Positions 6,053 through 21,531 of a stretch of DNA of 44,681 nt are shown piece after piece. This DNA is from Gammaproteobacteria bacterium (lineage in GTDB: Bacteria > Pseudomonadota > Gammaproteobacteria > GCA-001735895), in contig JAACFA010000035.1 of NCBI GenBank assembly GCA_009937625.1, forward strand, positions 1 through 44,681, read 5' to 3'. The notes under the pieces were generated by a model that saw only the letters and a program-made list of their open reading frames with translations, did no database searches and had not been told where the DNA came from. The translations under genes and the position numbers were made by a program. The stretch's first letter is position 1, and every line of letters starts with the position of its first letter.

Positions 6053-6178
6053 CGAGAGAGCAGCTGCCATTTGTGCGCCGATCGTCCCAACCCGGTCGCC
6101 GTGTTACAAGTGCTTGCAGAATAAATAACTTGTAGGCTTAATACGCATTTCCCACGGTTTGATAGGTGCTTTCAGCCA

Positions 6179-6622
6179 ATGATCAACAAGATTCTGGTTG
6201 CTACCGACGCGTCCGCGGCGTCGGGCCGCGCGGTCAGTTTTGCTGCACAATTGGCAGTGATACACGAAGCGGAATTGCTGATCTTGAACGTCATTCGGGA
6301 CATGCAGCTGCCCGACGAACTCAAGAATGCGCCCGAGTTCGAATCCTTTAACAACACGCGTGACGACCTGATGCGCCAGGCCGCTGACCGGATCCTGGAC
6401 GAGGCCAGGAAAAAGGCCAAAAAAGCTGGTGCAAAAAAGGTGCAAACCGCTATCGGCAGCGGCGATCCGGCGACCAGCGTCGCGGGTTTTGCCAAGCGCC
6501 GTAAAGTCGACCTGATCGTTGTCGGCACGCGTGGCCTGTCGAAGATCAAGGCTGCCTCGATGGGCAGCGTGTCGCGCAAGCTGCTGGACCTGACCGACGT
6601 CAACTGTGCCGTTATCCGGTAG
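6179..6622 (+). CDS. Universal stress protein (UspA family)
   Basis: KILVATDAS at the N-terminus; GDPA...VDLIVVGTRG....MGSVS ATP-binding motif. Confidence 0.92.
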   Translation: MINKILVATDASAASGRAVSFAAQLAVIHEAELLILNVIRDMQLPDELKNAPEFESFNNTRDDLMRQAADRILDEARKKAKKAGAKKVQTAIGSGDPATSVAGFAKRRKVDLIVVGTRGLSKIKAASMGSVSRKLLDLTDVNCAVIR

Positions 6623-6630
6623 GTTTGGCA

Positions 6631-6731
6631 GTCATCCCCGCGCAGGCTTGCGCGGCCCGGCGGGGATCTTGAGAATCCCTGACGATAACCATCAAAGTAC
6701 ATTGGGAGATCCCCGCTTGCGCGGGGATGAC
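6631..6731. repeat. Inverted pair of GTCAT-tagged REP-like palindromes (REPIN-like)
   Basis: GTCATCCCCGCGCAGGC..GGGGATC (6631-6668, with an insertion) faces GATCCCCGCTTGCGCGGGGATGAC (6708-6731), between convergent usp and tdm. The same unit recurs at 33176 and 37584. Confidence 0.75.
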
Positions 6732-6771: not shown

Positions 6772-9138
6772 TTATTCCGGGGGCGGAACGTCGCGTACTC
6801 TCGATTTGGTCGGATCGTAGAAAGGGAAGGGCACAACTTTCGCCGGCAGACGCTTCTGCTTGCCGTCGAGCTTGCCGACCTCGACTTCGGTGCCGGCCGC
6901 GCTGTGCTCGACCTGGATGCGGCACAGCGCCAGGTTCTTGCGCAGGATTGGCGAGCGCACCGCGCTGGTGATCTCGCCAACCTGGTTACGCCCGATGTCG
7001 ACGCAGTCGCCGTTGGCGGCGAGCTCGTCGCCATTCAATTCGAGACCGACCAGTACCCGTTGCGGATTTTCCTTGCGCCTGACCAGTGACGCCTTGCCGA
7101 TGAAGTCGTCTTCCTTGGTTTTGAGCGGGACGGTAAACCCGATCCCGGCCTCGAACGGGTCGGTTTGATCGCTGAACTCGTAGCCGGCGAAAATCAGGCC
7201 GGCCTCGACGCGCAGCATGTCGAGGGCTTCGAGCCCCAGTGGAGTCAGATCGTAGTCCTTGCCGGCTTCCCAGACCGCGTCCCACACGGCGGGCGCATCC
7301 TTGGGATGGCAGAAAACCTCGTACCCGAGTTCACCGGTGTAGCCGGTGCGCGAAACCACCAGCGGGATGCCGTGTTCGTCGCCGATGCGCGCGATCGAGA
7401 AGCGGAACCATTCGAGTTCGTCGATGGTGGCCTGGTCGGGGCGCGTCCAGATTATCTGGCGCAGGATATCGCGGCTCTTCGGGCCCTGTACCTGCAGGTT
7501 ATGCAACTGGTCGGTCGAGTTTCTCACCCAGGCCTGCAGCCCCAGTTTTTCGGCCTGTTCGCGCAACCAGATTCCGCTCTCGTCGCTACCGCCGATCCAG
7601 CGAAAGTTATCCCGGCCGAGGCGAAACACGGTGCCGTCGTCGATCATGCCGCCGTTTTCGTAACACATCGCGGTATAAACTACCTGACCGACCGCAAGCC
7701 TGCGAATATTGCGCGTGACGCAGGTTTGCATCAGCAACTCCGCGTCGGGACCGGTAACCTCGTACTTGCGCAGTGGCGACAGGTCGATCACGACCGCGCC
7801 CTCGCGGCAGGCCCAGTACTCGTCGAGCGCGCCGTGCTTGGTGTAGCTGTTGGCGAGCCAGTAACCGGCGTACTCGGTGAAGTTACGCGTGTGTTCCGAA
7901 GTGCGGCTGTGAAAGCCGGTTTCCTTTGTCATCTCTTTGTCTGCGTCTGCTGTCATTCTGAATGCCGTCGCTTTGGTAAATGAATTTTTGCCCGGGTAGA
8001 CGCGCAGGTGGATATCGGTCGGGTTCCAGCCGTTAGCGGCGTCGATGTCGCAGGGACAGGCCGACGATACGCACAGGATATCTTTCAGCGCACGCATCAA
8101 TACGTAGTCACCGGGGCGTGACCAGGGTTCGTCGAAGTACATCTGGTTGGCGTCGTCGATCCCGGTGTTGAAGAACAGGTTGATCGCCATCCAGCCCTTG
8201 CGCGCTTCCACGCCGTAGGGTCGCAGCGCCTGGTTGAAGTTGTCCGAACAGTTGACGTGGCCGGGATAACCCATGTCGTCGTAGTACTTGGCGGTGCAGG
8301 CCGTGCCGAAGCTGTCGTGGCGGCCGCAGGTGTCCTGCACGACTTCGAGCATCGCCTCGAAGTTCTGGTCGTAAAACTTGGAGTAGAGACCCGGGGCCGG
8401 GTAGGCGGCGCCGACCACGTGCCGGGTGCCGGTAGCGTCGAGGCAGCGCTCCACGCCTTTTTCCAGCATCGGCGCGTCGAAGCACTGGAGATCCGAGCAT
8501 TCTCGTCCCTCGACGTCGATGATCTGGATGTAGTCGCCGGCCTTGACCTCGTAGGCGTAAGCGGTACGCGCAGCGATGCGCACATCGGCCAGCGGATCGG
8601 CCAGCGGATCGGGCAATCGGATTATCGATTCCCGCTCGGCGCCAGGCTGGCGATGAACGAAGGCGACCAGGTCGGTGGACGTATCCTGCCGGTCGGCGCG
8701 CATATCGCCGCCCGGCGCGGCAACAATGCAGGTAATGTCCTGCTGGGCGGTAAATCGCACCGAATCACCGGCTGGTGACCGATCCGCGAACACGCGGGTG
8801 CTGCGCGCCTGCTCGAGCGATATGCCCTTATCTGCCAGCGCCGCCTGCAATAAACCGGCGCTGCCTGCGCCAGATTCGATAATCTGTTTCAGGCCCTCGC
8901 TGTTGCCGTCGTGGCGAGCACCGATCAACCCGCTGTCGCTGCGACCGTTGCTATCGAATACGCTGATCTCGCCCGGCTGCAGGCCCTCCGGGTTAACCAG
9001 TTCCAGTTCGTCGCCGGCAGCAAGGCTGAGCGCCGTGCTGCCGCCGCCTTTTACCAGGTAACGCTCGATGTTGGTCGGTAGCACGTTGAGGCCGGGTTTG
9101 CGAACCCTTGGCTGGCTGGTGAACAGCGGCTGGCTCAT
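6772..9138 (-). CDS. tdm: Trimethylamine N-oxide demethylase (DUF1989 domain plus GcvT-like aminomethyltransferase)
   Basis: 788 aa; DUF1989-type region with RHDSFGTAC, HVNCSDN and SACPCDIDAANGWNPTDIH, followed by a THF-binding GcvT fold (DLSPLRKYEVTGPDA, SRTGYTGELGYE, LRVEAG). Tmm and GmaS are in the same island. Confidence 0.88.
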   Translation of the reverse strand: MSQPLFTSQPRVRKPGLNVLPTNIERYLVKGGGSTALSLAAGDELELVNPEGLQPGEISVFDSNGRSDSGLIGARHDGNSEGLKQIIESGAGSAGLLQAALADKGISLEQARSTRVFADRSPAGDSVRFTAQQDITCIVAAPGGDMRADRQDTSTDLVAFVHRQPGAERESIIRLPDPLADPLADVRIAARTAYAYEVKAGDYIQIIDVEGRECSDLQCFDAPMLEKGVERCLDATGTRHVVGAAYPAPGLYSKFYDQNFEAMLEVVQDTCGRHDSFGTACTAKYYDDMGYPGHVNCSDNFNQALRPYGVEARKGWMAINLFFNTGIDDANQMYFDEPWSRPGDYVLMRALKDILCVSSACPCDIDAANGWNPTDIHLRVYPGKNSFTKATAFRMTADADKEMTKETGFHSRTSEHTRNFTEYAGYWLANSYTKHGALDEYWACREGAVVIDLSPLRKYEVTGPDAELLMQTCVTRNIRRLAVGQVVYTAMCYENGGMIDDGTVFRLGRDNFRWIGGSDESGIWLREQAEKLGLQAWVRNSTDQLHNLQVQGPKSRDILRQIIWTRPDQATIDELEWFRFSIARIGDEHGIPLVVSRTGYTGELGYEVFCHPKDAPAVWDAVWEAGKDYDLTPLGLEALDMLRVEAGLIFAGYEFSDQTDPFEAGIGFTVPLKTKEDDFIGKASLVRRKENPQRVLVGLELNGDELAANGDCVDIGRNQVGEITSAVRSPILRKNLALCRIQVEHSAAGTEVEVGKLDGKQKRLPAKVVPFPFYDPTKSRVRDVPPPE

Positions 9139-9141
9139 GCC

Positions 9142-9885
9142 TCAGTCCGTTTCCAGCAGATCATCGTGCACCCCGTAAAGGTGTTGCTTGATCAGTTTTA
9201 CCGCGCTGGAGGTGTCGCGGGCGGCAATCGCTTCATACAGCTTGCGATGCTGGCTATTGTAATAATCGATGCGGTCCGGGGTCAGCAGTTTGGACTTCAT
9301 CGTGCGCCATTGCGAGTGGCGCCGTACCTCGCTGATGCGTTCGTACAGCCAGTACATGAGCTTGTTGCGAGAACAGTGCGCCAGCGCCATGTGAAACGCC
9401 GCGTCGCCGCGCGCGAACTTTTCGGGATCGCCCCCGCAGTCCTCGCATTGCCGTAGCGCTTCACGCAGCTCGTCCAGCTCACGCGCGCTGGCGTTGGCAA
9501 TCGCCAGGCGCACCATGTGCGGTTCGATCGCTATCCGCACCTCGTTCATTTCCAGCGGGCTGGTGATGCTGGATATCTCTTGCTGATTGGCGATTTCCCG
9601 GTGGGTGACGTAAGTTCCGCTGCCGACCTGGCGCGTCACCAGGTGCTGTTGTTCCAGGATTTGCAGCACCGAGCGGATGGTACCGCGCGACACCCCGTAC
9701 TCCTCGGCCAGGTTGCGTTCGGCCGGCAGTCTTTCCTCGTAGGCGTAGTCGCCCTCGAGAATACTGCGGCGCAGTTGCGCCGCGACGTTACTGGTGGTTA
9801 CGCCAACGCGATGTCCGCTGCTTTTTCGCTCCGGCCTGGTCTCCGGGTCGGACGACACAAGGTTGCTGCTGTCAGCTGCTTTCAC
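9142..9885 (-). CDS. GntR/FadR-family regulator (TmoR-like), coupled to tdm
   Basis: wHTH (ERLPAERNLAEEYGVSRGTIR) and FCD domain (DAAFHMALAHCSRN). GTG start with GAGGAG RBS; stop is 3 nt before the tdm ATG. Confidence 0.9.
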   Translation of the reverse strand: MKAADSSNLVSSDPETRPERKSSGHRVGVTTSNVAAQLRRSILEGDYAYEERLPAERNLAEEYGVSRGTIRSVLQILEQQHLVTRQVGSGTYVTHREIANQQEISSITSPLEMNEVRIAIEPHMVRLAIANASARELDELREALRQCEDCGGDPEKFARGDAAFHMALAHCSRNKLMYWLYERISEVRRHSQWRTMKSKLLTPDRIDYYNSQHRKLYEAIAARDTSSAVKLIKQHLYGVHDDLLETD

Positions 9886-9927
9886 GCTGATGAACTCCTC
9901 GCATTTAGGTATTATTATGGTACTGTC

Positions 9928-10215
9928 AATTGGTACAATAATGCGTCATTTCGGGGCTTAAATCAAGCCTGTATAGCGGGTAAAAAAACTGGATTCGATA
10001 CTATTGAGATAAAATTGGCACTAAGTCACAGAACTTCGTTGAGGCCTATGGGCTGTAGGTTGAAGTTGAACAAGTCATGCATCAATATACTCTAAGTAGC
10101 TGAACTAAAAGAATTAAATGTATAATAGTTTGATGCGCTTGCGGCCGCACAGTGCGTTTTGCGGCAACATTGGCAGTTACTTCCCGAACATAGACTTGCG
10201 AATTGGTCCACTAAT
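9928..10215. promoter_or_regulatory. Candidate GntR/FadR operator repeats AATTGGTmCAmTAAT in the divergent promoter region
   Basis: AATTGGTACAATAAT (9928-9942) and AATTGGTCCACTAAT (10201-10215) match at 13/15 positions; AATTGGT half-sites are typical of FadR-subfamily operators. Confidence 0.4.
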
Positions 10216-10427
10216 AACGCGAATTACCGGCGAAATTGTCCAAAAAAAGGTGCCAGAGGTCTTGTCTTGGCTGACCGGATGGGTATACCATGGCGGCCTG
10301 TCGGGTTCACCCAAACGTCAGGCCGGGCGGCGAAAACCAGAGATTCCCGAAGAATAACCACAGATCGGGCGCTGCCCTGGTAGAACCGAAGAGAAAAAAA
10401 TATTGGTCTTAAACCGTGGAGGGCAAA

Positions 10428-11894
10428 ATGACTGATTTAGAAGCATGCGTCGAAGCACCAGGCCGCGCGGAGCTGGTGCAGCAGGTCCGGGAAAAAATCA
10501 ACGAACTCGGAATCACCTACATCTATTACCAGTTCATCTCGGTAACGGGTCGGATCGTCGGTAAGGGTATTCCGGCCGATCACTGGGAGCGAACCGCGGA
10601 AAGAGGCTTTCAGCTGGTTTACGGCTCTACCGCCAACCTTTTTATCGATCGCCACGGCGATTACATCGGTTACGGACCGGAAGCGATGGAGCTGGTCGGT
10701 ATTCCCGATCCCGAAACTTTCTGTCAGTTGCCCTGGGATAAGCGCGTCGCGCGCGTGTTCTGCACCTGTTACCGCAACCGTGAAGAGCGCGAGAACCCGG
10801 GTGGCGCACTGACTTCCGATTGCCGCGGCAACCTGAAGCGATTCCACAAGGAATTCCGGGACAAGTACGACATGGATTTCCGCGTCGGTACCGAGCCGGA
10901 GATGATGTGGCTGAAGCGTGGTGAAGACGGCAAACCCGACGGCGGTTTCTCGAATCCCTACTGTTACCACATCGACCAGTTCGAATCGCTGCGCCCGGTA
11001 TTCATGCAGGTGATCGAGTACTGTAACGCGATGGGCCTCGACATGATCCAGGGCGATCACGAGGATGCACCGGGACAGCTCGAACTCAACTGGACCTTCG
11101 ATGACGTGCTGCGTAACGCCGACCGCCTGTCGACCTATCGCCAGATTTGCGCCCAGGTGGCGCGCGAAAACAACCTGATCGCCTGCTTCATGACCAAGCC
11201 GTTCATGGGCGTATCGGCGTCGGGTTGCCATACCAATGTATCGTTGTGGCAAGGCGGGGAGGAGAGCATCAACGCGCTGCACAACGATCCGCTGCCGGGT
11301 ATGGAAGGCGTGTTTACCTACCGCACCGGCGGGGAAAACCTGTTCATGCCGGACACTGACGATATGCAGAAGCCGGGCAAGGTCGGCCTGCAGTGCGTTG
11401 GCGGTATCGTCAATCACCTGCGAGCGCTAACGGCAATCGGTTCCTCGACGGTGAATTCTTATCGTCGCCTGTGGGATACCGGTTTCTGGGCGCCTGTATT
11501 TGCCGATTGGGGTTACCAGAACCGCACTACCGGCCTGCGCATTTCAGCACCGGGCCGCTTCGAGTATCGCTCGGTCGACTCGATGTGTAATCCTTACCTG
11601 ATGGGTGCCGGCTTGCTCAAGGCATTCGAGGATGGTATCGACAACGATATCGATCCCGGGGAGCCGGAGAACCGGAATATCTACCAGGCGATGGAAGCCG
11701 GCAAGGAAGTCAAGAAGCTGCCGATGTCGCTCGGCGAGGCGCTCGACGCCCTGGCCCAGGACGAGGTTATCAAGTCAGCTATGCCGAACGAGATGTACAA
11801 GATCTACCACTGGTACAAGAACGACGAGTGGGAGAAATTCATGCATACCACGACCGAGTGGGACCTGGAGATGTATCTCGACTGCCTGCCATAG
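10428..11894 (+). CDS. Glutamine synthetase-like gamma-glutamyl-amine ligase (non-canonical, distant GmaS paralog)
   Basis: GS motifs GTEPE, DHEDAPGQLE, FMTKP..SGCH, NSYRRL, NR..LRI and RFEYR. The glutamate-flap position is W (WAP) and there is no FDGSS. ATG at 10428 follows GGAGG. Confidence 0.85.
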   Translation: MTDLEACVEAPGRAELVQQVREKINELGITYIYYQFISVTGRIVGKGIPADHWERTAERGFQLVYGSTANLFIDRHGDYIGYGPEAMELVGIPDPETFCQLPWDKRVARVFCTCYRNREERENPGGALTSDCRGNLKRFHKEFRDKYDMDFRVGTEPEMMWLKRGEDGKPDGGFSNPYCYHIDQFESLRPVFMQVIEYCNAMGLDMIQGDHEDAPGQLELNWTFDDVLRNADRLSTYRQICAQVARENNLIACFMTKPFMGVSASGCHTNVSLWQGGEESINALHNDPLPGMEGVFTYRTGGENLFMPDTDDMQKPGKVGLQCVGGIVNHLRALTAIGSSTVNSYRRLWDTGFWAPVFADWGYQNRTTGLRISAPGRFEYRSVDSMCNPYLMGAGLLKAFEDGIDNDIDPGEPENRNIYQAMEAGKEVKKLPMSLGEALDALAQDEVIKSAMPNEMYKIYHWYKNDEWEKFMHTTTEWDLEMYLDCLP

Positions 11895-12002
11895 GCCGGT
11901 TTCGATCGAATCAAGCCCGGCGCCGGCCCCTGGCCGCGCCGGGAGTATTAACCAGGGGCTGCCCCGGTAGCCCGACTGTTAAAACTAGAAGAGGATATTC
12001 CT

Positions 12003-12941
12003 ATGTGTGGTATTGCTGGACTTATCTGGAAAGGCGGTGTTACCAGTGATATCGGTAGCGAGATGACCCAGATGCTGCAGGCGCTGAAGCATCGGGGGCC
12101 GGACTCGACCGGTTTTGCGCTCTACGGTAAAGGCGAGGAAGGCGTATACGTGTTGCGCTTCAAGGTTGCCGAGCAGGAAGACATGAAAACCGGCTTCGAT
12201 ATTCACAAGCAGGTGATCGAGCGCAAGGCGATGGTCGACACAAGGCTCGAGGAAATGGGTGCCGACGTTACCGCGCGCGAAGATGCGACCGAGTACGCCT
12301 TCCGCTATCACTTCAAATTCGGCGGCGACCTGAAGCGCCTGATCGATTTCATCGAGGACATCGAGGGGGTTGAAATCCTGTCGGTGGGCAAGGGCCTCGA
12401 ACTGATCAAGGACCTGGGTGATGCGGCCATCGTTGCCGAACAATACGGTCTGAAGGGTTTCGTCGGAACCCACGCCATTGGCCATACCCGCATGGCAACC
12501 GAATCCGACGTGGATATTCGCTCGGCCCACCCCTACTGGGCTTACCCGTTCAACGACGTTTCGGTGGTACACAACGGCCAGTTGACCAATTACTGGACGA
12601 AACGCCGCGACCTGGAGCGGCGCGGTCATCGTTTCATGTCGAACTGCGACTCCGAACTGATTGCGGTTTACGTTGCCGATCGTATCGACCAGGGCGACGA
12701 GCTCGAATCGGCGATGTCGCGTTCGATCGATGAACTCGACGGCGTGTTTACTTACCTGGTCGCCACCAGCGATCAGCTCGGCATGGCCAAGGACGTCATG
12801 GCAGCCAAGCCGATGGTGCTTTACGAGAGTGACGAATTCGTCGGCCTGGCTTCGGAAGAAGTAGCCATTCGCAGTATTTTCCCGCGTGAAATAGACACCT
12901 GGGATCCTTATCAAGGGGAGGTAAAAGTATGGGCAGCGTAA
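12003..12941 (+). CDS. mgsA: Class II glutamine amidotransferase, MgsA/GlxB-like subunit (cassette 1)
   Basis: N-terminal MCGIAG, HRGPDSTG, GHTRMATES, AHP, HNGQ, DSE and KPMVLYE. Confidence 0.85.
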   Translation: MCGIAGLIWKGGVTSDIGSEMTQMLQALKHRGPDSTGFALYGKGEEGVYVLRFKVAEQEDMKTGFDIHKQVIERKAMVDTRLEEMGADVTAREDATEYAFRYHFKFGGDLKRLIDFIEDIEGVEILSVGKGLELIKDLGDAAIVAEQYGLKGFVGTHAIGHTRMATESDVDIRSAHPYWAYPFNDVSVVHNGQLTNYWTKRRDLERRGHRFMSNCDSELIAVYVADRIDQGDELESAMSRSIDELDGVFTYLVATSDQLGMAKDVMAAKPMVLYESDEFVGLASEEVAIRSIFPREIDTWDPYQGEVKVWAA

Positions 12942-13765
12942 CTACATCCCATGAAATGGGGCTGCACGAGGAGCAGCTGTCGGGTCGCACCCAGCAGATG
13001 TATTTCTCGGCGACCGAGGAAGAAAACTTTACTTATCCGTGGGCCTACGAGGTCGACTACGACAAGTCCGCCGAGTTCGACGCGGCGGACATGGGCATCT
13101 CGGAGATCAACCTCAAGATCCGCGAACTGATGAAGTCGGGTCACGGTTCGATAACCGTGCAGAACCCGCGCGCCAAGCATTCACTCGGGGTCGGTATCCT
13201 GAATCGCCTCAACCTGAAGTTCGAAGGCAGCCTGGGTTATTTCGGCTGCGGCCTGATTGACGGGCCCAACGTGCACATCACCGGCCGCGTCGGCTGGTCC
13301 TGCGCCGAGAACATGATGGCCGGTACCGTGGTCATCGAAAAGAACGCGGGCTCGCTGTTCGGCGCCGCGATCCGCGGCGGCGACCTGGTGTGCAGGGGTC
13401 AGGCCGGCGCGCGCGTCGGCATCGATCAGAAGGGCGGCACTATCATCGTCGGCGGCAGCGTCGGCGCCTTTACCGGCTTCATGATGCAGCGCGGTCGCAT
13501 GATCATCCTCGGCGATACCGGCGACAACCTCGGCGACTCGATGTATGACGGCACCATCTACGTGGCCGGCAAGATCGCGAGCCTGGGCGTCGACTGCGTC
13601 GAAACCGAGTTGACCGATCTCGACAGGAAATACCTGCAGGGCAAGCTCGACCTCTACGGCATGGAAGCGCCCAACGGTATCGACAGCATCGTCAAGCTGA
13701 CGTCGGGCAAGCAGTTGTGGAACTACGACAACCTCGAGCCCACCGAGAAAAAGCTGGTGCTCTAG
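12929..13765 (+). CDS. mgsB: GXGXG beta-helix protein, MgsB/GlxC-like subunit (cassette 1)
   Basis: Gly-rich repeats (GSLGYFGCG, GRVGWSCAENMMAG, GARVGIDQKGG, GDSMYDG) with an N-terminal extension of about 45 aa. It overlaps the mgsA stop and has a GGAGG RBS. Confidence 0.85.
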   Translation: MGSVTTSHEMGLHEEQLSGRTQQMYFSATEEENFTYPWAYEVDYDKSAEFDAADMGISEINLKIRELMKSGHGSITVQNPRAKHSLGVGILNRLNLKFEGSLGYFGCGLIDGPNVHITGRVGWSCAENMMAGTVVIEKNAGSLFGAAIRGGDLVCRGQAGARVGIDQKGGTIIVGGSVGAFTGFMMQRGRMIILGDTGDNLGDSMYDGTIYVAGKIASLGVDCVETELTDLDRKYLQGKLDLYGMEAPNGIDSIVKLTSGKQLWNYDNLEPTEKKLVL

Positions 13766-13792
13766 GCATCACCGAGAATTTGGAGAATACAG

Positions 13793-15133
13793 ATGTCCGA
13801 AAAAAAGAAAGATCCATATAACCTCGGCAAGAGCTTCATCTTTCCGCCCGAGGTTATCAACGATATCCACATCAAGTCGGAGCTGGGACGTTACCGCATG
13901 CGCGGTTTCTCGCTGTTCAAGAAAATCCCGACCTGGGACGACCTGACCTTCATGCCGGGCACGCTGACCCGATTCGTGATCGAGGGTTACCGCGAAAAAT
14001 GTCTGACCAAGACCATTATCGGCCCGGAAGCGAAACGTCCGCTGGAACTCGATATACCGGTATACATCACCGGTATGTCCTTCGGCGCGCTTTCTTACGA
14101 GGCCAAGACGGCCCTGGCGCGCGGCGCGACCATGGCCGGCACCGCGACCTGCTCCGGCGAAGGCGGCATGATACCTGACGAGCGCCGTTATTCGTCGAAG
14201 TGGCTGTACCAGTGCATCCAGTCGCGTTACGGCTTCAATCCGAACCACCTGCGGCTGGCCGATGCCTGCGAATTTTTTATCGGCCAGGGCTGTAAGGTTG
14301 GCCTCGGCGGCCACCTGATGGGGCAGAAGGTCACCGACCAGGTCGCCGAAATGCGCTCGCTGCCGGCCGGTATCGACCAGCGTTCGCCGGCGCGCCATCC
14401 AGACTGGATGGGTCCGGATGACCTGGCGCTCAAGATCCAGGAAGTTCGCGAGGCTACCGATGGACAGATTCCGATCCAGCTCAAGCTCGGCGCGGCGCGG
14501 GTTTACGACGACGTGCGCATGGCGGCTAAAACGGGGCCAGACTCGATTTACATGGATGGCATGGAAGGTGGTACCGGCGCCGGGCCGCACCTGGCGACCG
14601 AGGATACCGGGGTTCCGGGTATTGCCGCGATTCGCCAGGCGCGCCAGGCGCTCGACGATGTCGGCATGTCGGGCCGTATTACGCTGGTTTACGCCGGGGG
14701 TATCCGCAACGGCGCCGACGTCGCCAAGGCGATCGCGCTGGGCGCGGACGCGGTGGCCATCGGCCACTCGGCGATGATGGCGCTGAACTGCAACAAGGAT
14801 ATCCCGGAAGCCGATTACGAGAAGGAAATGGGCGTCGAAGCCGGTTACTGTTACCACTGCCATACCGGTCGTTGCCCGGTGGGCGTTGCCACCCAGGATC
14901 CCGAGTTGCGCAAGCGTCTGGATCCCGACGAGGCGGCCGAGCGGGTCTATAATTTCCTGCACACGCTGACCATCGAGGCGCAGCTGTTCGCACGCGCCTG
15001 CGGCAAGACCAACATCCATTCGCTGGAGCCGGAAGACCTGGCGGCATTGACGCTCGAGGCCTCGGCCTGCGCGCAGGTGCCGATGGCCGGTACTCAATAC
15101 ACCGTCGGTCGCCCCGACATGACTCGTTTCTAA
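13793..15133 (+). CDS. mgsC: FMN-binding glutamate synthase family protein, MgsC/GlxD-like (cassette 1)
   Basis: GMSFGALS, SGEGGM, GQGCKVGLGGHL, SPARHPDW, DGMEGGTGA, GGIRNGADVAKAIALGADAV, CYHCHTGRCPVG and LEPEDL. Confidence 0.88.
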   Translation: MSEKKKDPYNLGKSFIFPPEVINDIHIKSELGRYRMRGFSLFKKIPTWDDLTFMPGTLTRFVIEGYREKCLTKTIIGPEAKRPLELDIPVYITGMSFGALSYEAKTALARGATMAGTATCSGEGGMIPDERRYSSKWLYQCIQSRYGFNPNHLRLADACEFFIGQGCKVGLGGHLMGQKVTDQVAEMRSLPAGIDQRSPARHPDWMGPDDLALKIQEVREATDGQIPIQLKLGAARVYDDVRMAAKTGPDSIYMDGMEGGTGAGPHLATEDTGVPGIAAIRQARQALDDVGMSGRITLVYAGGIRNGADVAKAIALGADAVAIGHSAMMALNCNKDIPEADYEKEMGVEAGYCYHCHTGRCPVGVATQDPELRKRLDPDEAAERVYNFLHTLTIEAQLFARACGKTNIHSLEPEDLAALTLEASACAQVPMAGTQYTVGRPDMTRF

Positions 15134-15144
15134 GGAGGTCGAAA

Positions 15145-15534
15145 ATGACTGAACTCAGTATTAACCATTTCCTCGAGGGCGACGGCGTCGATACCGAGCG
15201 CGAGAAAATCATCGGTCAACACATCGGCTACCGTTACGATGTGAACCTGGTGCCGGATATGGATCGCTGTACGCCATTCCTGCGCAAGTACATGGAGATC
15301 ATGGGCTGGCAGGACCTGAACTGGCTCGAAGACGTGCACATGGGATACGAGGAAGGGCGGCCCGCGGTGTTCGATCGCAATATCAACGGCTGGGTGACCA
15401 TCCCGGAAGATATCGAACTGCCGGATAACCAGCAGGACCGTGACATGATTGCGCGCGAACTGCTGGTCAAGTTCCAGATGGCAAAGGGACATCCGATGGT
15501 CGATCTGCGCAAGGCTTACGAAAAGTTTGCCTGA
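15145..15534 (+). CDS. Hypothetical soluble 129-aa protein, last gene of cassette 1
   Basis: AAGGAGG RBS overlapping the mgsC stop (11-nt gap); codon style matches the operon; no recognisable domain. Confidence 0.8.
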   Translation: MTELSINHFLEGDGVDTEREKIIGQHIGYRYDVNLVPDMDRCTPFLRKYMEIMGWQDLNWLEDVHMGYEEGRPAVFDRNINGWVTIPEDIELPDNQQDRDMIARELLVKFQMAKGHPMVDLRKAYEKFA

Positions 15535-15788
15535 GGAAAGCGGTGATAAGTGAATAAAATTAACGATTACCGGGGTTTCCAGTAATCCTTTTTTGTTTGG
15601 AAACTGACTGACGGCTCTTTAAATCTTAATTGATAAGGATCGTTGGTATAGGGTATAAAGATGTTTGATTTCTTTCGGGTGGTTAGGGCTTCCTGTGAAG
15701 GAGACTAGTCGCCTGGATTTAGATCAGTCGGATCTTATCCGGCAGTACGCTAGTATAAATTACAATCCTATAACAGAGGGGGGGGAAA

Positions 15789-17153
15789 ATGGATAACGAA
15801 CTATCGTCGCTCGTTATAATATTTACCGAGTTTTATTATTGGGTCACCGTCGTGTTCATGTTCCTGATACACGTCGGTTTCTGTATGTACGAGGTTGGCG
15901 CCTCACGCTATAAAAACCACACGCACACCCTGATGAAGAACACCATGCTTATCCCGCTGGTGACGATTACATTCTTCTTCTTTGGCTGGTGGATTTACTT
16001 TGCGGCCACACCCTGGAGCGAGCTGATGGGCACGCATATGGGTGGCGCGCCGGTTCAGGATACCCTGACCGCCGACGATACCGCCTATTGGGCGCGCATC
16101 AACGGTGTATTCTGGGCCGCATTCCTGCTGTTCTCCTGGACTGCTGCTTCGATCGTCTCCGGCGCCGTCATCGAGCGTATTCGTCCCAGCGCGTTCTGGA
16201 TCCTGGCCGTTGTGATCGGTTCTTTTACCTGGATCATCGACGCCTCATGGGGCTGGTCGTGGAACGGCTGGATGGTGCAAAAGCTGGGATACCACGATGC
16301 TTATGCTTCCGGCGTTATCCACGCGATCGCCGGTGGTTTTGCGCTTGGCGTGTTACTGGTACTGGGTCCGCGCATCGGCAAATTCCGTGCGGACGGCACG
16401 CCGAGAAATATCAATCCGCATAATCCGTGGCTGGTAACCATCGGGTTGTTCCTGATCTATACCGGCTTCTGGGGCTTTTACGTGGCCTGTAATATTCCCG
16501 TGATCGACGTATACGGCGGGGCCATGCTGGATGTGGAGGGTAAAACCTTCTTCAGCGCCACCAACATTTATTTACAGCCGACGACGCTATCCGCGATTAC
16601 CTTCAACTTTCTGATGTCGCTATCGGGCGGTTTGATGGTGGCGTATATCGTTTCCAATGGTGATGCATTCTGGACCTACTCCGGTGGTCTGGCCGGCGTT
16701 ATCGGCGCATCCTCGGGCAACGACCTGTATCACCCCATCCAGGCCATGCTGATTGGCGGCGGCGGCGCATTCATCGCCTTCAAGATGCATTACTGGGTTG
16801 AAAACAGGTTCAAGATCGACGATGCCGTAGGCGCGGTCGCGGTCCATGGTTATGCCGGTTTTTACGGTATCGTCATGGCCGGATTCATGCTGTGGGGCTA
16901 CCCGTCGTCGCCGTTCGAGGGTTATGCGGCCATTTCCCCATGGGGCAATTTCCTCGGCGCATTGATCATGTTCTTCGTACTGGGTTTTTTCCCGGCGCTG
17001 ATCGTCTCGAAGATCCTGCACGGTTTCGGCATGCTGCGTATCCCGCGCGAAATCGAACTGGTTGGCCTGGATATCAACTATGAATCGGCGCGTGCCGCCG
17101 ATGCCGACGAAGTGGCACAGGCAATTCGGGAAGAAGCCCGTAACAGCGCCTGA
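15789..17153 (+). CDS. amt: Amt/Mep/Rh-family transporter 1 (divergent; probable methylamine-type substrate)
   Basis: About 11 TM segments; GFCMYEVG, SGAVIERI, HDAYASGVIH, LGPRIGKF and KIDDAVGAVAVHG (twin-His retained). Confidence 0.88.
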   Translation: MDNELSSLVIIFTEFYYWVTVVFMFLIHVGFCMYEVGASRYKNHTHTLMKNTMLIPLVTITFFFFGWWIYFAATPWSELMGTHMGGAPVQDTLTADDTAYWARINGVFWAAFLLFSWTAASIVSGAVIERIRPSAFWILAVVIGSFTWIIDASWGWSWNGWMVQKLGYHDAYASGVIHAIAGGFALGVLLVLGPRIGKFRADGTPRNINPHNPWLVTIGLFLIYTGFWGFYVACNIPVIDVYGGAMLDVEGKTFFSATNIYLQPTTLSAITFNFLMSLSGGLMVAYIVSNGDAFWTYSGGLAGVIGASSGNDLYHPIQAMLIGGGGAFIAFKMHYWVENRFKIDDAVGAVAVHGYAGFYGIVMAGFMLWGYPSSPFEGYAAISPWGNFLGALIMFFVLGFFPALIVSKILHGFGMLRIPREIELVGLDINYESARAADADEVAQAIREEARNSA

Positions 17154-17190
17154 TCGCATACCGTTAACAGATTACTGAGGAGAAAATACC

Positions 17191-17439
17191 ATGGCTACTG
17201 GAGCAGTTGATAATTGGCTCAATATTGATCAGTTCGGCGCAATCTATCCCTTCGTTGGCACGGAAGTATTATTGACGATTCTGGGATTTGCTTTCTGGAT
17301 CGGCTGGCATATCTACCAGTTGAAGAAGGAATCAGCCGAATTCAGGGAAGATATTGAAAACATCAAAAAGCAGGGCGGCCCCGGGAAAGTCCTCGAGGAC
17401 GAGGGCCGACGGGAAATGGAGGATACCGTGGGCCAGTAA
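17191..17439 (+). CDS. Small single-TM protein downstream of Amt 1
   Basis: GAGGAG RBS; 82 aa with one hydrophobic helix (VLLTILGFAFWIGWHIY) and a charged tail; followed by a terminator. Confidence 0.75.
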   Translation: MATGAVDNWLNIDQFGAIYPFVGTEVLLTILGFAFWIGWHIYQLKKESAEFREDIENIKKQGGPGKVLEDEGRREMEDTVGQ

Positions 17440-17475
17440 ACGCCCGTGGTATGCCGCCGCGTTTGTAGTAACCAG

Positions 17476-17505
17476 ACCCCTTCGATTTCGGTCGAAGGGG
17501 TTTTC
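17476..17505 (+). terminator. Rho-independent terminator
   Basis: ACCCCTTCGAT-TTCG-GTCGAAGGGGT followed by TTTC. Confidence 0.7.
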
Positions 17506-17525
17506 ATTATCTCCCCGGGTATTTG

Positions 17526-18026
17526 ATGATAAAAGATGCGCTCTCGGCTATACCGAGCCGGCCGGTCCTGTATATCGCGCCCGTTATCGTGATCGTGGTG
17601 CTGCTGCTTTATTACCGGGACCTGTATATCAAGTGCAGCGATATCAGGCAGCATCGTGAGTCACTAAACGAGTTGATACCGACACTGGACGCATCGGCGC
17701 AATTTCGGCTGGCGGAGTTCACCGGGTTTCGCTGGGATAAGGTCAGGATCATTGCGAAGCTCGAACCCGATGTCAGAACTGTCGAATGTCCCTTCGGCTG
17801 GAACTGGGTCAGTGGCCAAAGGGAATCGCTCGCAAATGCCGGATTATTGAGCGCATTGATATTTGCCCAGCAGGGCACGATCGTAAAATATCTCGAAGTG
17901 CGCAATGACGAAGTCGCGTTTCGTGGCGCCGACTCCAGTTTAACCCCGCAAACCGCGGTTTTTAGTGTCGCTACGAATTCCGATAGCGGCAGCGCCGTTG
18001 CTCTGATATTGAATAAAAAAAACTAG
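17526..18026 (+). CDS. Hypothetical membrane-anchored protein
   Basis: About 166 aa with one N-terminal TM helix (VLYIAPVIVIVVLLLYY); lower GC than neighbours. Confidence 0.6.
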   Translation: MIKDALSAIPSRPVLYIAPVIVIVVLLLYYRDLYIKCSDIRQHRESLNELIPTLDASAQFRLAEFTGFRWDKVRIIAKLEPDVRTVECPFGWNWVSGQRESLANAGLLSALIFAQQGTIVKYLEVRNDEVAFRGADSSLTPQTAVFSVATNSDSGSAVALILNKKN

Positions 18027-18251
18027 AGTCGTCGGAATATTCGGGCCGTTCCTGTGCAGCCCAAACATTGAAACAAGGTCGCCACAGGCAATCTCTATTT
18101 TCGAACCATGTTGCCGGCTTATCGGTACAGAAGATGTCGCTTTGGCGATGTTTTACCGATACGATAATCGTAAAATTGAGTGTGCGGTTCACGCGGCCGG
18201 GTCGCGCATCATAGCGCCGACATTCTAACTTGCTAACTGGGGGAATCAAAT

Positions 18252-19130
18252 TTGGCCACAATCATCGACGGCAAAGCATTTTCGGCTAACCTGCGCGGCG
18301 AAATCGCGCGCAAGGTTGCAATTCTCAAGCAGAATCATGCGCTGACGCCCGGACTCGCGGTAGTCCTGGTGGGGGAAGATCCGGCCAGCCAGGTTTACGT
18401 GCGCAGCAAGGGCAAGCAAACCGCCGAGGCGGGCATGAATTCCTACGAGCACAAGCTCGACGCGGCTACCAGTCAGGCAGATCTGCTGAGCTTGATCGAC
18501 CGGCTCAACGACGACCCCGACGTGCACGGCATCCTGGTGCAACTGCCCCTCCCGGGCCATATCGACGAGGAAGCGGTGATCAACTCGATTTCGGTAGACA
18601 AGGATGTCGATGGATTTCACCTTTCCAATGTCGGCAGGTTATCGATCGGCGCCGACGGTATCGTGCCCTGTACCCCTCTCGGTTCGTTGATGATGCTCAA
18701 GGATCATCTCGGCGACCTGTCGGGCATGAAGGCCATCGTCGTTGGCCGCTCCAACATCGTTGGCAAGCCAATGGCGGCACTCCTGTTAAAGGAAAGCTGC
18801 ACGGTGACGATCGCGCATTCGCGCACCCGCGACCTTCCCGGCGAATGCCGCCAGGCCGATATCCTGGTGGCCGCGGTCGGACGACCGGAAATGATCAAGG
18901 GTGACTGGATCAAGCCCGGCGCCACGGTAATCGACGTCGGTATCAACCGCATCGAAAACGAAGACGGCAGTACGCGCCTGGTGGGCGACGTCGAGTTCGA
19001 TAGCGCCGCCGAGGTTGCCGCTGCGATTACGCCGGTGCCCGGTGGCGTCGGTCCGATGACCATTGCCTGCCTGTTGCACAATACTATGCAGCAGGCCTGC
19101 CGGTTGAATGGCGTCGAGGTGCCGGAGTAA
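18252..19130 (+). CDS. folD: Bifunctional methylene-THF dehydrogenase/cyclohydrolase
   Basis: [55 protein letters not shown] and [11 protein letters not shown]; TTG start. Confidence 0.96.
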
Positions 19131-19212
19131 GGCGGGCCGGTTCTGTTCGAGGTCCATCTAGCCTGTTAAACATGGTAAATTCGGGTCGTTTCGTACCTGT
19201 GCCGGGCTGCTT

Positions 19213-19680
19213 ATGTCCCCGATCCTGAAACGTAGTTTGATATTTATAGTCTTGATGGCGGCCGGGCTGGTGTTGTACATGTCCTGGTACAACATCAAGG
19301 CTGAACGTTTTAACGAGACTGCAATTCCCTACCTGGAACAGGCCCTGCCAAAGTTAACCAGCTGGCAATATCCAGAACTCGAGATGCTGTTGTCTCCTAC
19401 GGCAAAGACCGTATTTGCATCCGATAAAGTTCGGGCTGCTTATCAAGAGTTTAGCCAGTTAGGGCAGCTGCAATCGATGAGCCGACCCGAATTCATGGGA
19501 AATCGCTCCGAGACTTTCGAGGAGCTGGGGGATGTCGAGTTAATCGCCTACCAGGTGCAGCTGGAGTTCGAAACCGGACCGGCCGTGATAAAACTGAACC
19601 TGGCCAGCGACGGCCAGCGCTACTACATCCATCACTTCGGTATTCACTCGCATATATTCGCCGATCACGACGATTCCTAG
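19213..19680 (+). CDS. Hypothetical exported or membrane-anchored protein
   Basis: 155 aa with an N-terminal TM/signal segment; no confident family assignment. Confidence 0.6.
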   Translation: MSPILKRSLIFIVLMAAGLVLYMSWYNIKAERFNETAIPYLEQALPKLTSWQYPELEMLLSPTAKTVFASDKVRAAYQEFSQLGQLQSMSRPEFMGNRSETFEELGDVELIAYQVQLEFETGPAVIKLNLASDGQRYYIHHFGIHSHIFADHDDS

Positions 19681-19712
19681 GCTTAATTTCCGCAGCCATT
19701 GCATGGTCATAG

Positions 19713-19727
19713 GCACCAACATGGTGC
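19713..19727. promoter_or_regulatory. Candidate NtrC-type binding site upstream of amt 2
   Basis: GCACC-AACAT-GGTGC matches the GCACC-N5-GGTGC core of NtrC boxes, about 230 nt upstream of the ATG. Confidence 0.4.
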
Positions 19728-19954
19728 GAAAATTCTTTGTAAAACAAGAACATGGCTATCGTTATATAGATTGGTTATGATTGCGCGGTGCGGCCGGTGG
19801 CACTGCCGGAAGCCCGATAATAATTAAGCGCTCCAGGATCGATATGTGGCGGCCGCCGACCGGCCGGCATGGGCAAACGGACCGCAATCGCGGGAAGCAT
19901 TTGGATTACTGTTGGAGAACAGACACTATAACTTAACTAATAGGGGGAGGCGTA

Positions 19955-21259
19955 ATGACACCTGCAGAACTAGAGTCCGCGTTAACGTGGGCCAACACGA
20001 TAAACCTCGAGGTTTACTATTACTGGTGTACCGCCATCATGATCCTGATCCACGCGGGCTTCATGATGTACGAGATGGGCGCTTCGAGAGTCAAGCACAC
20101 GCTCGCCGCCGGTACCAAGAACGTCCTGGCATTTGCCTACATGATCCCGACTTTCTGGATGTTCGGATGGTGGATCTACCTGGCGATGTACCAGGGTTTC
20201 ACGCCCGACTGGGAAGCCGGCGCGGGTGGCGTACCCTGGGGCGATAGCATGGGCCCGAATCTGCAGGATAACGCTTCCGGCGTATTCTGGGGCGCGTTTA
20301 CGCTGTTTGCCTGTACCACCGCTTCGATCATGTCAGGCGCGGTTATCGAGCGCATCCGTATGACCGCCTTCATTCTCCTCGCGGTTATTCTCGGCTCGGT
20401 GGTGTGGATCCTGTCCGCGTCCTGGGGCTGGCATTACGCCGGCTGGATGGTCACCGACTGGGGTTACCACGACTTCGGCGCCTCCGGTGTGGTGCACATC
20501 ATTTCGGGTTTCTTCGCACTGGGCGTGCTGATCCATCTCGGCCCGCGTATTGGCAAGTTCAACGCCGACGGCTCGGCCAATGTGATCCGCGGCCATAGCC
20601 TGCCGATGACCATGGTTGGATTGATGCTGATCGTGACCGGCTTCTTCGGCTTCCTCGGTGGTTGCCTGTTCTACGGCGGCGGTGGCCCGACCGGTATCGG
20701 TCAGTGGACCAATATCTATGGTATGCCGACCACGCTCTCGGCTATCTGTTTCAACACCTTGATGGGTATCGCAGGTGGCATGATCGGAGCCTATACCAAG
20801 ACTCGCGATCCCTTCTGGATGATGTCGGGCGCACTTTGCGGCGTTATTTCGGTCGCAGCCGGCATGGACCTTTACTACCCGGGTCTCGCCTTCGTACTCG
20901 CCTTTGTGGGTGGCGTGATTGGACCGATGGCGGCGCAATTCGTCGAAAAGATGGGTATCGACGACGCGGTTGGCGCGGTCTCGGTGCATGGCGTCTGCGG
21001 CATCCTCGGGCTGGTGTTTGCCGGTATTTTCCTCGGCGGCTATCCCCAGTTTGCGGATAATATTCCGTCGATCACCTTCGGCGGCCAGTTCAAGGGCATG
21101 ATCGTTATGGTCCTGCTCGGTTTTATACCGGGATTCGTGTTCGCCTGGATCTTCAAGGCACTGGGTATTCTGCGCGCCAGCGACGGCGTCCAGGAAGTCG
21201 GTATGGATGTCGAAATCGAAGCCATGGCCTACCCTGAAGACATCAAGACAATCAACTAG
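19955..21259 (+). CDS. amt: Amt/Mep/Rh-family transporter 2 (divergent; probable methylamine-type substrate)
   Basis: HAGFMMYEMG, SGAVIERIR, HDFGASGVVH, LGPRIGKF and GIDDAVGAVSVHG; GGGAGG RBS. Confidence 0.88.
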   Translation: MTPAELESALTWANTINLEVYYYWCTAIMILIHAGFMMYEMGASRVKHTLAAGTKNVLAFAYMIPTFWMFGWWIYLAMYQGFTPDWEAGAGGVPWGDSMGPNLQDNASGVFWGAFTLFACTTASIMSGAVIERIRMTAFILLAVILGSVVWILSASWGWHYAGWMVTDWGYHDFGASGVVHIISGFFALGVLIHLGPRIGKFNADGSANVIRGHSLPMTMVGLMLIVTGFFGFLGGCLFYGGGGPTGIGQWTNIYGMPTTLSAICFNTLMGIAGGMIGAYTKTRDPFWMMSGALCGVISVAAGMDLYYPGLAFVLAFVGGVIGPMAAQFVEKMGIDDAVGAVSVHGVCGILGLVFAGIFLGGYPQFADNIPSITFGGQFKGMIVMVLLGFIPGFVFAWIFKALGILRASDGVQEVGMDVEIEAMAYPEDIKTIN

Positions 21260-21269
21260 GAGAATAAAT

Positions 21270-21479
21270 ATGTTTAACTCAAGTCCAATCGAAACCTGGG
21301 ACGGCGCGGCAGCTTTCTTCTCCTTCGCCGGATCCGCCGGTATCTGGTTCTGGATTGCCGTAATCCTGTGTATCGTTCCGCTGTTCGTGACGCTGAAGAC
21401 CGAGAATCATCATGAAACTCAGCACAAGTTCAGAAGCGACGATAGCGACAGTACGCACGGTGTTGAAAAAGGCAGTTAG
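21270..21479 (+). CDS. Small single-TM protein downstream of Amt 2 (69 aa)
   Basis: AGGAG RBS overlapping the amt stop and ATG at 21270; MFNSSPIETWDGAAAFFSFAGSAGIWFWIAVILCIVPLFVTLKTENHHE...; followed by a terminator. Confidence 0.75.
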   Translation: MFNSSPIETWDGAAAFFSFAGSAGIWFWIAVILCIVPLFVTLKTENHHETQHKFRSDDSDSTHGVEKGS

Positions 21480-21497
21480 ATCCACCGCTTGAAAATG

Positions 21498-21531
21498 AAG
21501 CCTCGCCTGGAAACAGGTGGGGCTTTTTTTT
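21498..21531 (+). terminator. Rho-independent terminator
   Basis: AAGCCTCGCCTG-GAAA-CAGGTGGGGC followed by a run of 8 T. Confidence 0.85.

Follow-up and report, generated by a model that had tools for sequence, protein, structure and literature searches.

A second γ-glutamylation cassette divergent from tdm in a gammaproteobacterium, with dimethylamine as candidate substrate

Described amine pathways and the cassette beside tdm

Dimethylamine (DMA), the product of the trimethylamine N-oxide (TMAO) demethylase Tdm, is removed in Ruegeria pomeroyi by DmmDABC, a HODM-type haem PAS enzyme. Dmm is an O2- and NADPH-dependent oxidative demethylase that yields monomethylamine (MMA) (PMC5520151). Tdm-carrying marine bacteria, SAR11 above all, have been reported to be without Dmm, which was read as a bottleneck releasing DMA to the atmosphere (PMC5520151), and Smith et al. 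treat the DMA route as an open question (PMC3870248). Candidatus Pelagibacter ubique HTCC1062 has no dmm, yet TMAO supports its growth, if weakly, when supplied as the only nitrogen source (PMC8918994). The ligase of the canonical pathway, RhGmaS, has a Km of 27 µM for MMA and of 16 mM for DMA (PMC7948447, Table 1), which makes it a poor DMA ligase. Taken together with the growth of HTCC1062, this indicates that a Dmm-independent route must exist somewhere. Here a stretch of 44,681 nucleotides from a gammaproteobacterium (assembly GCA_009937625.1, contig JAACFA010000035.1; the window) is described, in which a second glutamylation cassette, GS1-MgsA1-MgsB1-MgsC1-orf129, lies divergent from gntR-tdm in an island that also carries a canonical gmaS.

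The closest characterized system is the N-methylglutamate (NMG) pathway, GmaS/MgsABC/MgdABCD, of Methyloversatilis universalis, Methylocella silvestris and R. pomeroyi, with which the cassette shares folds and gene-order logic: a ligase of the glutamine synthetase (GS) fold is combined with a three-part split glutamate synthase (GOGAT) enzyme, and both systems are found in methylated-amine islands. Unlike the NMG pathway, the cassette forms a separate paralogous lineage (31%–43% identity, with the ligase below the TIGR03105 cut-off), has an extra 129-aa gene, coexists with the canonical genes and is mostly linked to tdm, not to mgd. DmmDABC has no sequence or fold relation to the cassette, although the proposed role, removal of the DMA made by Tdm, would be alike; unlike Dmm, the cassette would be ATP dependent and non-oxidative in its first two steps. 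A GS-fold ligase also tags the amine with glutamate in the pathways of IpuC (isopropylamine) and PuuA (putrescine). There a P450 or oxidase and a γ-glutamyl hydrolase act next, whereas in the cassette a GOGAT-like transfer enzyme follows, and neither a P450 or oxidase nor a γ-glutamyl hydrolase is encoded in 9886–17153.

In gene order, and in the Amt gene that follows, the cassette matches SAR11_1305–1309 of HTCC1062, of which it is an orthologue. Identities of the SAR11 copies to the window are 77%–79% for GS1, 78%–80% for MgsC1 and 74%–79% for orf129. The SAR11 arrangement differs from that of the window in that tdm is co-oriented upstream, a DAO gene lies between, GntR is missing and canonical mgsABC is often absent. 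The tags are annotated as glnT (SAR11_1305), gltB-like (1306–1308) and hypothetical (1309), followed by amt (1310) (PMC3870248, PMC2704228); the canonical genes, SAR11_1313–1316 (glxBCD, glnT), are the NMG synthase and GmaS as proposed by Sun et al. (PMC3160333). The available text of PMC3870248, PMC2704228 and PMC3160333 assigns no function to SAR11_1305–1309. What was already known is the genes, as unexplained SAR11 paralogues, and the folds and logic of the NMG pathway. No publication was found on DMA glutamylation (γ-glutamyl-dimethylamide or dimethylglutamate) or on an alternative SAR11 DMA pathway, in a search that did not extend to subscription journals and supplements. Matches to "dimethyl-glutamate" were cell-permeant ester or depsipeptide residues and were set aside as not relevant.

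The cassette is read here as a second, paralogous γ-glutamylation/N-alkylglutamate-synthase module of methylated-amine catabolism that shares a GntR-type regulator with tdm, with DMA as its likeliest amine and DmmDABC as the system it replaces; this is the best supported of the readings considered, and its chance as a whole is put at a little under even. GS1 would ligate a small methylated amine to the γ-carboxyl of glutamate at the expense of ATP, MgsA1, an Ntn amidotransferase, would hydrolyze the resulting amide, and MgsB1/MgsC1 would move the freed amine onto the 2-oxoglutarate/glutamate skeleton, giving an N-alkylglutamate and NH3. The N-alkylglutamate would be demethylated by sarcosine-oxidase-type dehydrogenases encoded elsewhere in the genome. 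With DMA, the route would run through γ-glutamyl-dimethylamide and N,N-dimethylglutamate, and the cassette would stand in for DmmDABC in Tdm carriers without Dmm. The substrate and each chemical step are inferred, the chemistry being plausible because GmaS and NMG synthase work in an analogous way. What the present analysis establishes is gene content, the intact catalytic residues, synteny and co-occurrence patterns. The narrower assignment, in which GS1 is a γ-glutamyl-dimethylamide synthetase and MgsA1B1C1 (with orf129) yields N,N-dimethylglutamate by a Dmm-independent route whose first steps are free of O2, is tentative, and odds are against it as it stands. For the wider reading, glutamylation of DMA has the merit of accounting at once for the membership in methylated-amine catabolism, a job distinct from that of GmaS and a large degree of interchangeability with Dmm, and it agrees with the growth of HTCC1062 on TMAO without dmm and with the recognized gap at the DMA step of SAR11.

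Spread of the cassette and its relation to Dmm

The original prediction described the cassette from this island alone; it is no special feature of it, and the module is widespread. Relatives of GS1 number at least 4907 proteins at E ≤ 0.001 among 8000 candidates; the best 120 are 79%–97% identical, and the few that are named belong to SAR324, Arenicellales and Planctomycetota. Gene content was counted in the 80 best GS1 stretches from species genomes (a relative is encoded in 594 of the 599 candidates), 70 of which are from Pelagibacteraceae with 77%–79% identity. MgsA1 is present in 77 of these loci, a DAO-type gene in 74, MgsB1 in 72, MgsC1 in 71, orf129 in 70, Tdm in 68, Amt1 in 65 and canonical GmaS in 59; in the SAR11 loci, GS1 and GmaS are within a few kb of each other. 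Viewed from tdm (80 best tdm loci from species genomes), GS1 is found in 53 loci and in 20 of the 29 with ≥8 kb of sequence to either side; nine such loci are exceptions, but for four of them (L128, L132, L146 and L149) the retrieved sequence ends where the cassette begins. An arrangement tdm/(gntR)/GS1-MgsA1B1C1-orf129 is also seen in gammaproteobacterial metagenome-assembled genomes (MAGs), Granulosicoccaceae, an alphaproteobacterial MAG (L136) and Acidimicrobiia, whose copies are 61%–66% (GS1) and 78%–80% (MgsC1) identical. Across these 160 loci, cassette-type GS1 is always accompanied by methylamine-pathway genes (tdm, tmm, gmaS, mgd-like, folD, fhs), and a P450 lies beside it in none.

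Among 79 species genomes of the window's order, GS1, Tdm and the DAO gene are confined to the window's genus (50, 53 and 53 of 61 genomes; 0 of 18 in the other three genera). The genus includes the Olavius algarvensis Gamma 3 symbiont (L114), with identities of 85% for Tdm and 97% for GS1; the literature on Olavius symbionts yielded nothing on the cassette. Fifty Tdm-positive genomes (set A) were chosen among the 80 tdm loci so as to have long contigs and a broad range of taxa. A GS1 orthologue (≥62% identity) is present in 46 of them and canonical GmaS, above the curated cut-off, in 45, so that both ligases are retained together, streamlined SAR11 included. GS1 is not redundant with GmaS. The co-occurrence of the ligase with tdm that the original prediction had proposed to look for is thus present, and the two genes adjoin across lineages. 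Some genomes appear under two handles with identical contig coordinates (G001 = G055, G002 = G074, G009 = G104, G010 = G101, G017 = G090, G083 = G144 and G080 = G143).

The Dmm marker PF11927 was validated on the dmmD-A-B-C operon of a congener (L176), which has PF22290/PF22289 and a Fer2/NAD-binding subunit. The window had been described as being without Dmm; indeed, PF11927, PF22290 and DmmD orthologue searches were negative both there and in the whole genome (93.36% complete). The absence of DMA and trimethylamine dehydrogenases, also noted there, was confirmed among the 40 scanned open reading frames (ORFs) of the window; the whole genome was not searched for them. The genome does carry two soxBDAG-type (mgd-like) operons, on contigs C328 and C294, which could serve in the demethylation of N-methylated glutamate and are the dehydrogenases invoked above. 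PF11927 matches were obtained in six of the 50 genomes of set A and in six of the 61 genomes of the genus. True dmmDABC is present in only three genomes of set A (G009, G010 and G017), so that carriers of the cassette do not routinely encode dmm. The matches in G014, G021 and G026 were rejected, being 24% identical to DmmC or undetectable by tblastn, with no DmmD, DmmA or DmmB within 10 kb. Stops in the DmmA matches were not counted as decay, since they are located upstream of the true start and the genes are intact.

GS1 is absent in two of the three true Dmm carriers of set A. The cassette is gone from L122, a Dmm carrier, and in L113 a GS1 remnant (residues 26–111, two in-frame stops) and an orf129 remnant (stops and a frameshift) persist at 8160–8770, between amt and gntR, which is the syntenic site, with MgsA1B1C1 deleted. 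Both loci retain canonical gmaS. A second sample (set B) comprised 50 of 80 genomes found through DmmC, of which 36 have Tdm. GS1 homologues occur in four of these 36 Tdm- and Dmm-positive genomes, and two of the four are cassette type: a member of the window's genus (G083/G144) and L258. The remaining two, in Acidocella aquatica (64%) and Xanthobacter agilis (53%), stand in a different, ipu-like context. In L258 (G152:C9, 11796–20000, a Poriferihabitaceae MAG), DAO-GS1-MgsA1B1C1-orf129 is divergent from gntR-dmmDABC; its dmmB is split by an IS21-type element (integrase and IstB), and a DDE transposase lies between gntR and dmmD. When the sets are pooled, cassette-type GS1 is present in 45 of 47 Tdm-positive genomes without true Dmm and in 3 of 39 with it. 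Among Tdm carriers, the distribution of the cassette is largely complementary to that of Dmm.

The ligase, its partners and the rest of the window

Genes of the window were located from an ORF listing and Pfam/NCBIfam profile scans (Table 1). The complete second set that was predicted is there, as five closely spaced, intact plus-strand genes over 10416–15534. GS1 scores 302.8 bits, in two stretches, on the GmaS model TIGR03105, below its cut-off of 469.6, and it is likewise below the cut-offs of TIGR00653 (glutamine synthetase type I; 256.6 bits, cut-off 429.15) and NF045547 (GGputSyn; 225.9 bits, cut-off 650). Its identity to the GmaS of the window is 31% (BLASTP E 3e-67). A published survey of gmaS used a cut-off of e-50 (PMC5520151), and, judged from the mutual E value of the window pair and not from the R. 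pomeroyi query, surveys at that cut-off may have counted both paralogues.

The amine pocket was compared in an alignment of 108 distinct GS1-family and 58 GmaS-family sequences, from which entries of <58% identity, of <400 residues or with stops had been dropped. RhGmaS numbering was mapped through chain 7cql (offset 20), and residue roles are those given for RhGmaS by Wang et al. (PMC7948447). All seven MMA-pocket residues (Tyr147, Gln175, Asp177, Glu179, Glu186, Asn188 and Lys30′), the catalytic Asp177 and Glu186 among them, are invariant in 108 of 108 GS1 sequences. Catalytic Arg312, together with Arg317, Glu325 and Arg327, is present in the GS1 of the window, as judged by eye in this one sequence. 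The GS flap residue Glu327 is Trp in all 108 sequences, as in GmaS. The differences flank the pocket and are fixed in the family: Tyr174, Asn176, Asn182, Phe185 and His237 of GmaS are Ile, Gly, Pro, Leu and Asn in GS1. In addition, GS1 has an extra F-x-D-R-H loop, whose Asp78 corresponds in the alignment to the Asp of the GS "FDGSS" motif (the ammonium-binding Asp50′) and is Asp in 104 of 108 sequences. The loss of Asp50′ that marks GmaS (Ala48′ in RhGmaS; the GmaS family is gapped there) is therefore not seen in GS1. A further insertion of ∼24 residues follows the "SLW" strand. By its sequence, GS1 is a lineage distinct from GmaS and very probably an active γ-glutamyl-alkylamine ligase, with a GmaS-like pocket in different surroundings; MMA and DMA are not told apart by the GS1 sequence alone.

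The next three genes have the make-up of MgsABC, being adjacent and encoding Ntn amidotransferase (Met-Cys), GXGXG and FMN Glu_synthase domains, and the canonical-type copies of SAR11 and L007 share 30%–54% identity with their products. The 129-aa ORF, which the original prediction had listed as a gene of no assigned role, is a real gene, kept in most GS1 loci as counted above. An alignment of 31 members has 21 invariant columns, and orthologues extend to Actinomycetota at 32%–38% identity. Its AF2 model is a small α/β protein (pLDDT 77.6) for which no PDB fold match was obtained at E ≤ 0.001; a Pfam scan of the 31 members gave chance-level matches only, and a protein atlas held hypothetical clusters only. 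Prediction of an MgsC1-orf129 complex returned a score of 0.00, which is no answer and says nothing on binding. The gene is absent where GS1 stands without MgsA1B1C1 (L006 and L007); orf129 accompanies MgsA1B1C1, not GS1 alone.

The divergent promoter region said to be shared with gntR-tdm corresponds to a spacer of 530 bp. In an alignment of 21 related spacers, blocks are at least 85% conserved, including repeated TGGTAC-type half-sites and a GGTATACC palindrome, and these boxes may be GntR operators. Of the 80 tdm loci, 51 have a GntR homologue next to the cassette; L258 has one too, as do L002, L003 and L008, which are without tdm. An Rfam scan of 5000–36000 (E ≤ 0.1) gave no match, not even to the structured RNA that has been described ahead of SAR11_1310 (PMC2704228).

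Table 1. Features of the window: tdm, the cassette, the comparison set and neighbouring genes
Feature	Position	Strand	Assignment
tdm, trimethylamine N-oxide demethylase	6772–9138	-	NF053776 1227.5 bits (cut-off 1100); DUF1989, GCV_T, GCV_T_C
gntR, GntR/FCD-family regulator	9142–9885	-	PF00392 and PF07729; upstream of tdm, divergent from cassette
Divergent intergenic spacer, 530 bp	9886–10415	.	Blocks conserved among 21 related loci
GS1, glutamine-synthetase-fold ligase	10416–11894	+	PF00120
MgsA1, class-II (Ntn) amidotransferase subunit	12003–12941	+	PF13522/PF13537; N-terminal Met-Cys-Gly-Ile-Ala-Gly, shared with canonical MgsA
MgsB1, GXGXG (GltB C-terminal-like) subunit	12929–13765	+	PF01493
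MgsC1, FMN Glu_synthase-domain subunit	13793–15133	+	PF01645 311 bits
orf129, 129-aa protein	15145–15534	+	No Pfam or NCBIfam family
Amt1, Amt-family transporter	15789–17153	+	PF00909; SAR11_1310 type
mgsA, comparison set	24490–25364	+	Frameshifted in window
mgsBC fused, comparison set, 658 aa	25346–27322	+	
GltD-like gene, comparison set, 838 aa	27325–29841	+	GltD-like Fe-S/FAD N-terminal part; C-terminal piece Glu_synthase-like
gmaS, canonical	29897–31213	+	TIGR03105 655.1 bits (cut-off 469.6)
orf175, 175 aa	33304–33831		No family
Class-I amidotransferase (240 aa) and GGACT/AIG2-like protein	33826–35084	-	γ-Glutamylamine cyclotransferase fold (GGACT/AIG2-like)
ORF 3′ of tdm	6172–6702	either	No family; minus-strand translation as listed

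On the 3′ side of Amt1, the order is folD, a second amt, tmm and the comparison set, with a formate-tetrahydrofolate ligase gene 3′ of its gmaS. This other set had been called canonical, which is correct for gmaS (624.5 bits, E 7e-187 against the solved RhGmaS chain) and not for the Mgs part, which is unusual in having a fused MgsBC and a GltD-like gene. The fused protein and the GltD-like protein recur at 82%–93% identity in two congeners (L172 and L173), and at 57%–66% in an Arenicellales MAG (L003), and the pair points to an NMG synthase variant linked to NAD(P)H. Identities between cassette and comparison set are 31% for the ligases, as given above, 39% for MgsC, 38%–51% for MgsA and 35% for MgsB, the last with MgsB1 aligned to the N-terminal half of the fused MgsBC; by these values, the two sets are distant paralogues.

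Just outside the island lie the class-I amidotransferase and GGACT/AIG2-like genes, and in L002 a two-subunit hydantoinase/oxoprolinase pair is located 5′ of the cassette. Together they hint at a branch for recycling of γ-glutamyl amines. The neighbouring orf175 recurs by the cassette in L002, L005, L009, L160, L173 and L258. Its AF2 model (pLDDT 90.1) has a weak likeness to FMN/haem-binding split-barrel proteins (best Foldseek E 8e-4, TM 0.42–0.47), and a protein atlas gave no usable match. The family-less ORF 3′ of tdm is found by tblastn at the same position, at 48%–87%, in most related loci; its listed translation is rich in Arg and Ser, and the true gene may be the plus-strand ORF at 6179–6622.

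The assembly was checked against public sequencing runs. Fourteen DNA runs of 11 studies, labelled as sediment, estuary, biofilm, soil and marine, contain 0.98 of the words sampled from 24300–25500; either the population is very widespread and nearly clonal in this part, or these runs come from a shared campaign. Contigs of runs X1, X10 and X15 that otherwise equal the window have 34 extra bases at 24936–24938, in the canonical mgsA, which is frameshifted in the window without them. The same 34 bases are present in the congeners L172 and L173, and the frameshift is thus best explained by an assembly artefact or a rare variant and probably does not mark a fixed pseudogene. These contigs also have 48 extra letters between 16003 and 16004, in frame, which add 16 codons to Amt1, and X1 alone has one extra G after 15777; the Amt1 of the window may have been shortened by assembly. 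In the metatranscriptome run X16, window-identical contigs extend over portions of GS1 and MgsA1 as well as of the canonical set, a weak indication that both sets are transcribed. The lack of X16 contigs over 15076–24371 was not taken as silence. Run X15 is labelled as RNA, yet it covers the whole stretch evenly, as DNA would, and was not used as evidence of expression.

The substrate of the cassette

Whether the cassette handles DMA, as originally predicted, has to be judged from evidence on both sides. Co-occurrence and synteny with tdm and the complementarity with Dmm argue for it; carriers without tdm, coexistence with Dmm and the conserved pocket weigh against it, and the points that do so are collected here. 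The cassette is present without tdm in all six assemblies G134–G139 (completeness not given) and in the genus members G059, G109 and G112, which are 89%–99% complete. In the tdm-less L004 and L005, it is followed by soxB/D/A/G-type (mgd-like) genes, which fits a general role in the NMG pathway. The tdm-less genomes that were searched have canonical GmaS in three of five cases and PF11927 in none of five. In four of five SAR11 genomes, MgsC1 is the sole MgsC-like gene besides GltB while GmaS is kept, so that MgsA1B1C1 probably accepts γ-glutamylmethylamide. In L006 and L007, GS1 heads an mgd(soxBDAG-like)-mgsABC-gmaS cluster without MgsA1B1C1. Taken with those SAR11 genomes, this indicates that the constant feature is the pair of ligases, which either type of synthase may accompany. 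The first-shell pocket of GS1 is identical to that of GmaS, so that GS1 may act on MMA. No N,N-dimethylglutamate demethylase was identified, and nitrogen limitation of HTCC1062 brought a slight decrease in the SAR11_1305 and SAR11_1308 proteins (0.67 and 0.66 fold; PMC3870248, Table 2). As for Dmm, the predicted anti-correlation is seen across the sets, but these were assembled through separate queries and represent unlike lineages and habitats, related genomes are not independent of one another, and within the genus the association of GS1 and Dmm is not significant (Fisher p 0.09 for Tdm-positive genomes, 0.07 for all). GS1 and intact dmmDABC occur together in G009 and G083. The losses in L113 and L122, which have the same gene order, are probably one event, and the cassette divergent from GntR-dmmDABC in L258 also fits a role downstream of Dmm.

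Several of these points would be accounted for if the cassette were an MMA isozyme set, a second γ-glutamylmethylamide synthetase and NMG synthase differing in affinity or regulation, with DMA excreted or left to another enzyme. The conserved pocket and catalytic residues, MgsC1 as sole MgsC-like gene in GmaS-keeping SAR11 genomes, the adjoining mgd-like genes in tdm-less genomes and the position beside dmmDABC in L258 are all in keeping with it, as are the Amt-family transporter that follows the cassette in most GS1 loci and the oxidation of MMA by HTCC1062, reported by Lidbury 2017 citing Sun 2011 (PMC5520151). What an isozyme set leaves unexplained is the retention of both ligases in streamlined SAR11 and in 45 of 50 Tdm-positive genomes, the linkage to tdm in genomes without a known step from DMA to MMA, the rarity of GS1 in genomes that have both Tdm and Dmm, and its decay in a Dmm-positive congener that retains canonical gmaS; it is held to be rather unlikely, if the most serious competitor. 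A different or broad-range amine (ethylamine, a hydroxylamine-type compound or other alkylamines), with the tdm link reflecting shared regulation of nitrogen scavenging, is improbable. The closest non-cassette homologues of GS1, in A. aquatica (L259 7196–13902) and X. agilis (L260 4114–14872), have as neighbours a second GS-like gene, P450, class-I amidotransferase/peptidase C26 genes and an amino-acid permease, with an aldehyde dehydrogenase added in X. agilis, a layout that includes both the P450 and the γ-glutamyl hydrolase of Ipu/Puu-type pathways and resembles the isopropylamine (ipu) γ-glutamylation pathway (role of ipuC, PMC1713258). RhGmaS itself accepts several amines (PMC7948447, Table 1), and the window has the class-I amidotransferase and GGACT/AIG2-like genes of Table 1. 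The cassette-type ligase, however, stands among methylamine-pathway genes wherever it occurs in the 160 loci, with a P450 in none of them, and is paired with an NMG-synthase-like enzyme where the ipu-like clusters have a hydroxylase/hydrolase pair. As cultured strains that carry GS1-like ligases, A. aquatica and X. agilis are possible handles on the substrate range of the clade.

The DMA step has also been considered for the SAR11_1304-type DAO flavoprotein, a secondary-amine oxidase or dehydrogenase whose product, MMA, the cassette would then take. Characterized DAO-family amine oxidases act on N-methyl amino acids and are not known to act on free DMA. The gene (442–455 aa) adjoins GS1 in SAR11, Acidimicrobiia, L002–L004, L008, L009, L258, G059 and G109 (copies include L059:8606–9934 and L124:3083–4450); the Acidimicrobiia copy is 54.5% identical to that of SAR11. 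In favor of this step are the presence of the gene in 74 of 80 GS1 loci and the strong induction of SAR11_1304 when nitrogen is limiting (PMC3870248, Table 1). The window's own genome has a copy of 447 aa apart from the island (contig C271:4468–5811, L171), unlike several gamma lineages in which the gene stands directly beside GS1. The gene persists, however, in Dmm carriers that have no GS1 (G090, G101 and Cocleimonas G146 and G186) and in genomes with neither Tdm nor GS1 (G060 and G066), and its carriers in the genus include some without tdm or GS1. It is thus not an obligate partner of the cassette, nor what Dmm displaces, and a DMA step catalyzed by this flavoprotein is the least probable of the explanations considered.

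On the DMA reading, Tdm carriers without Dmm would have in the cassette a tangible candidate for the DMA step, one that is found widely and is strongly conserved. If it does act on DMA, the supposed "DMA bottleneck" would disappear for SAR11, SAR324, Acidimicrobiia of the sea, Gammaproteobacteria of sediments and symbioses, and others, and the gain of nitrogen from TMAO by HTCC1062 would be explained. Estimates of marine DMA turnover and of the supply of methylamine-derived nitrogen would then change, and the cassette bears on a standing question in marine nitrogen and aerosol-precursor cycling.

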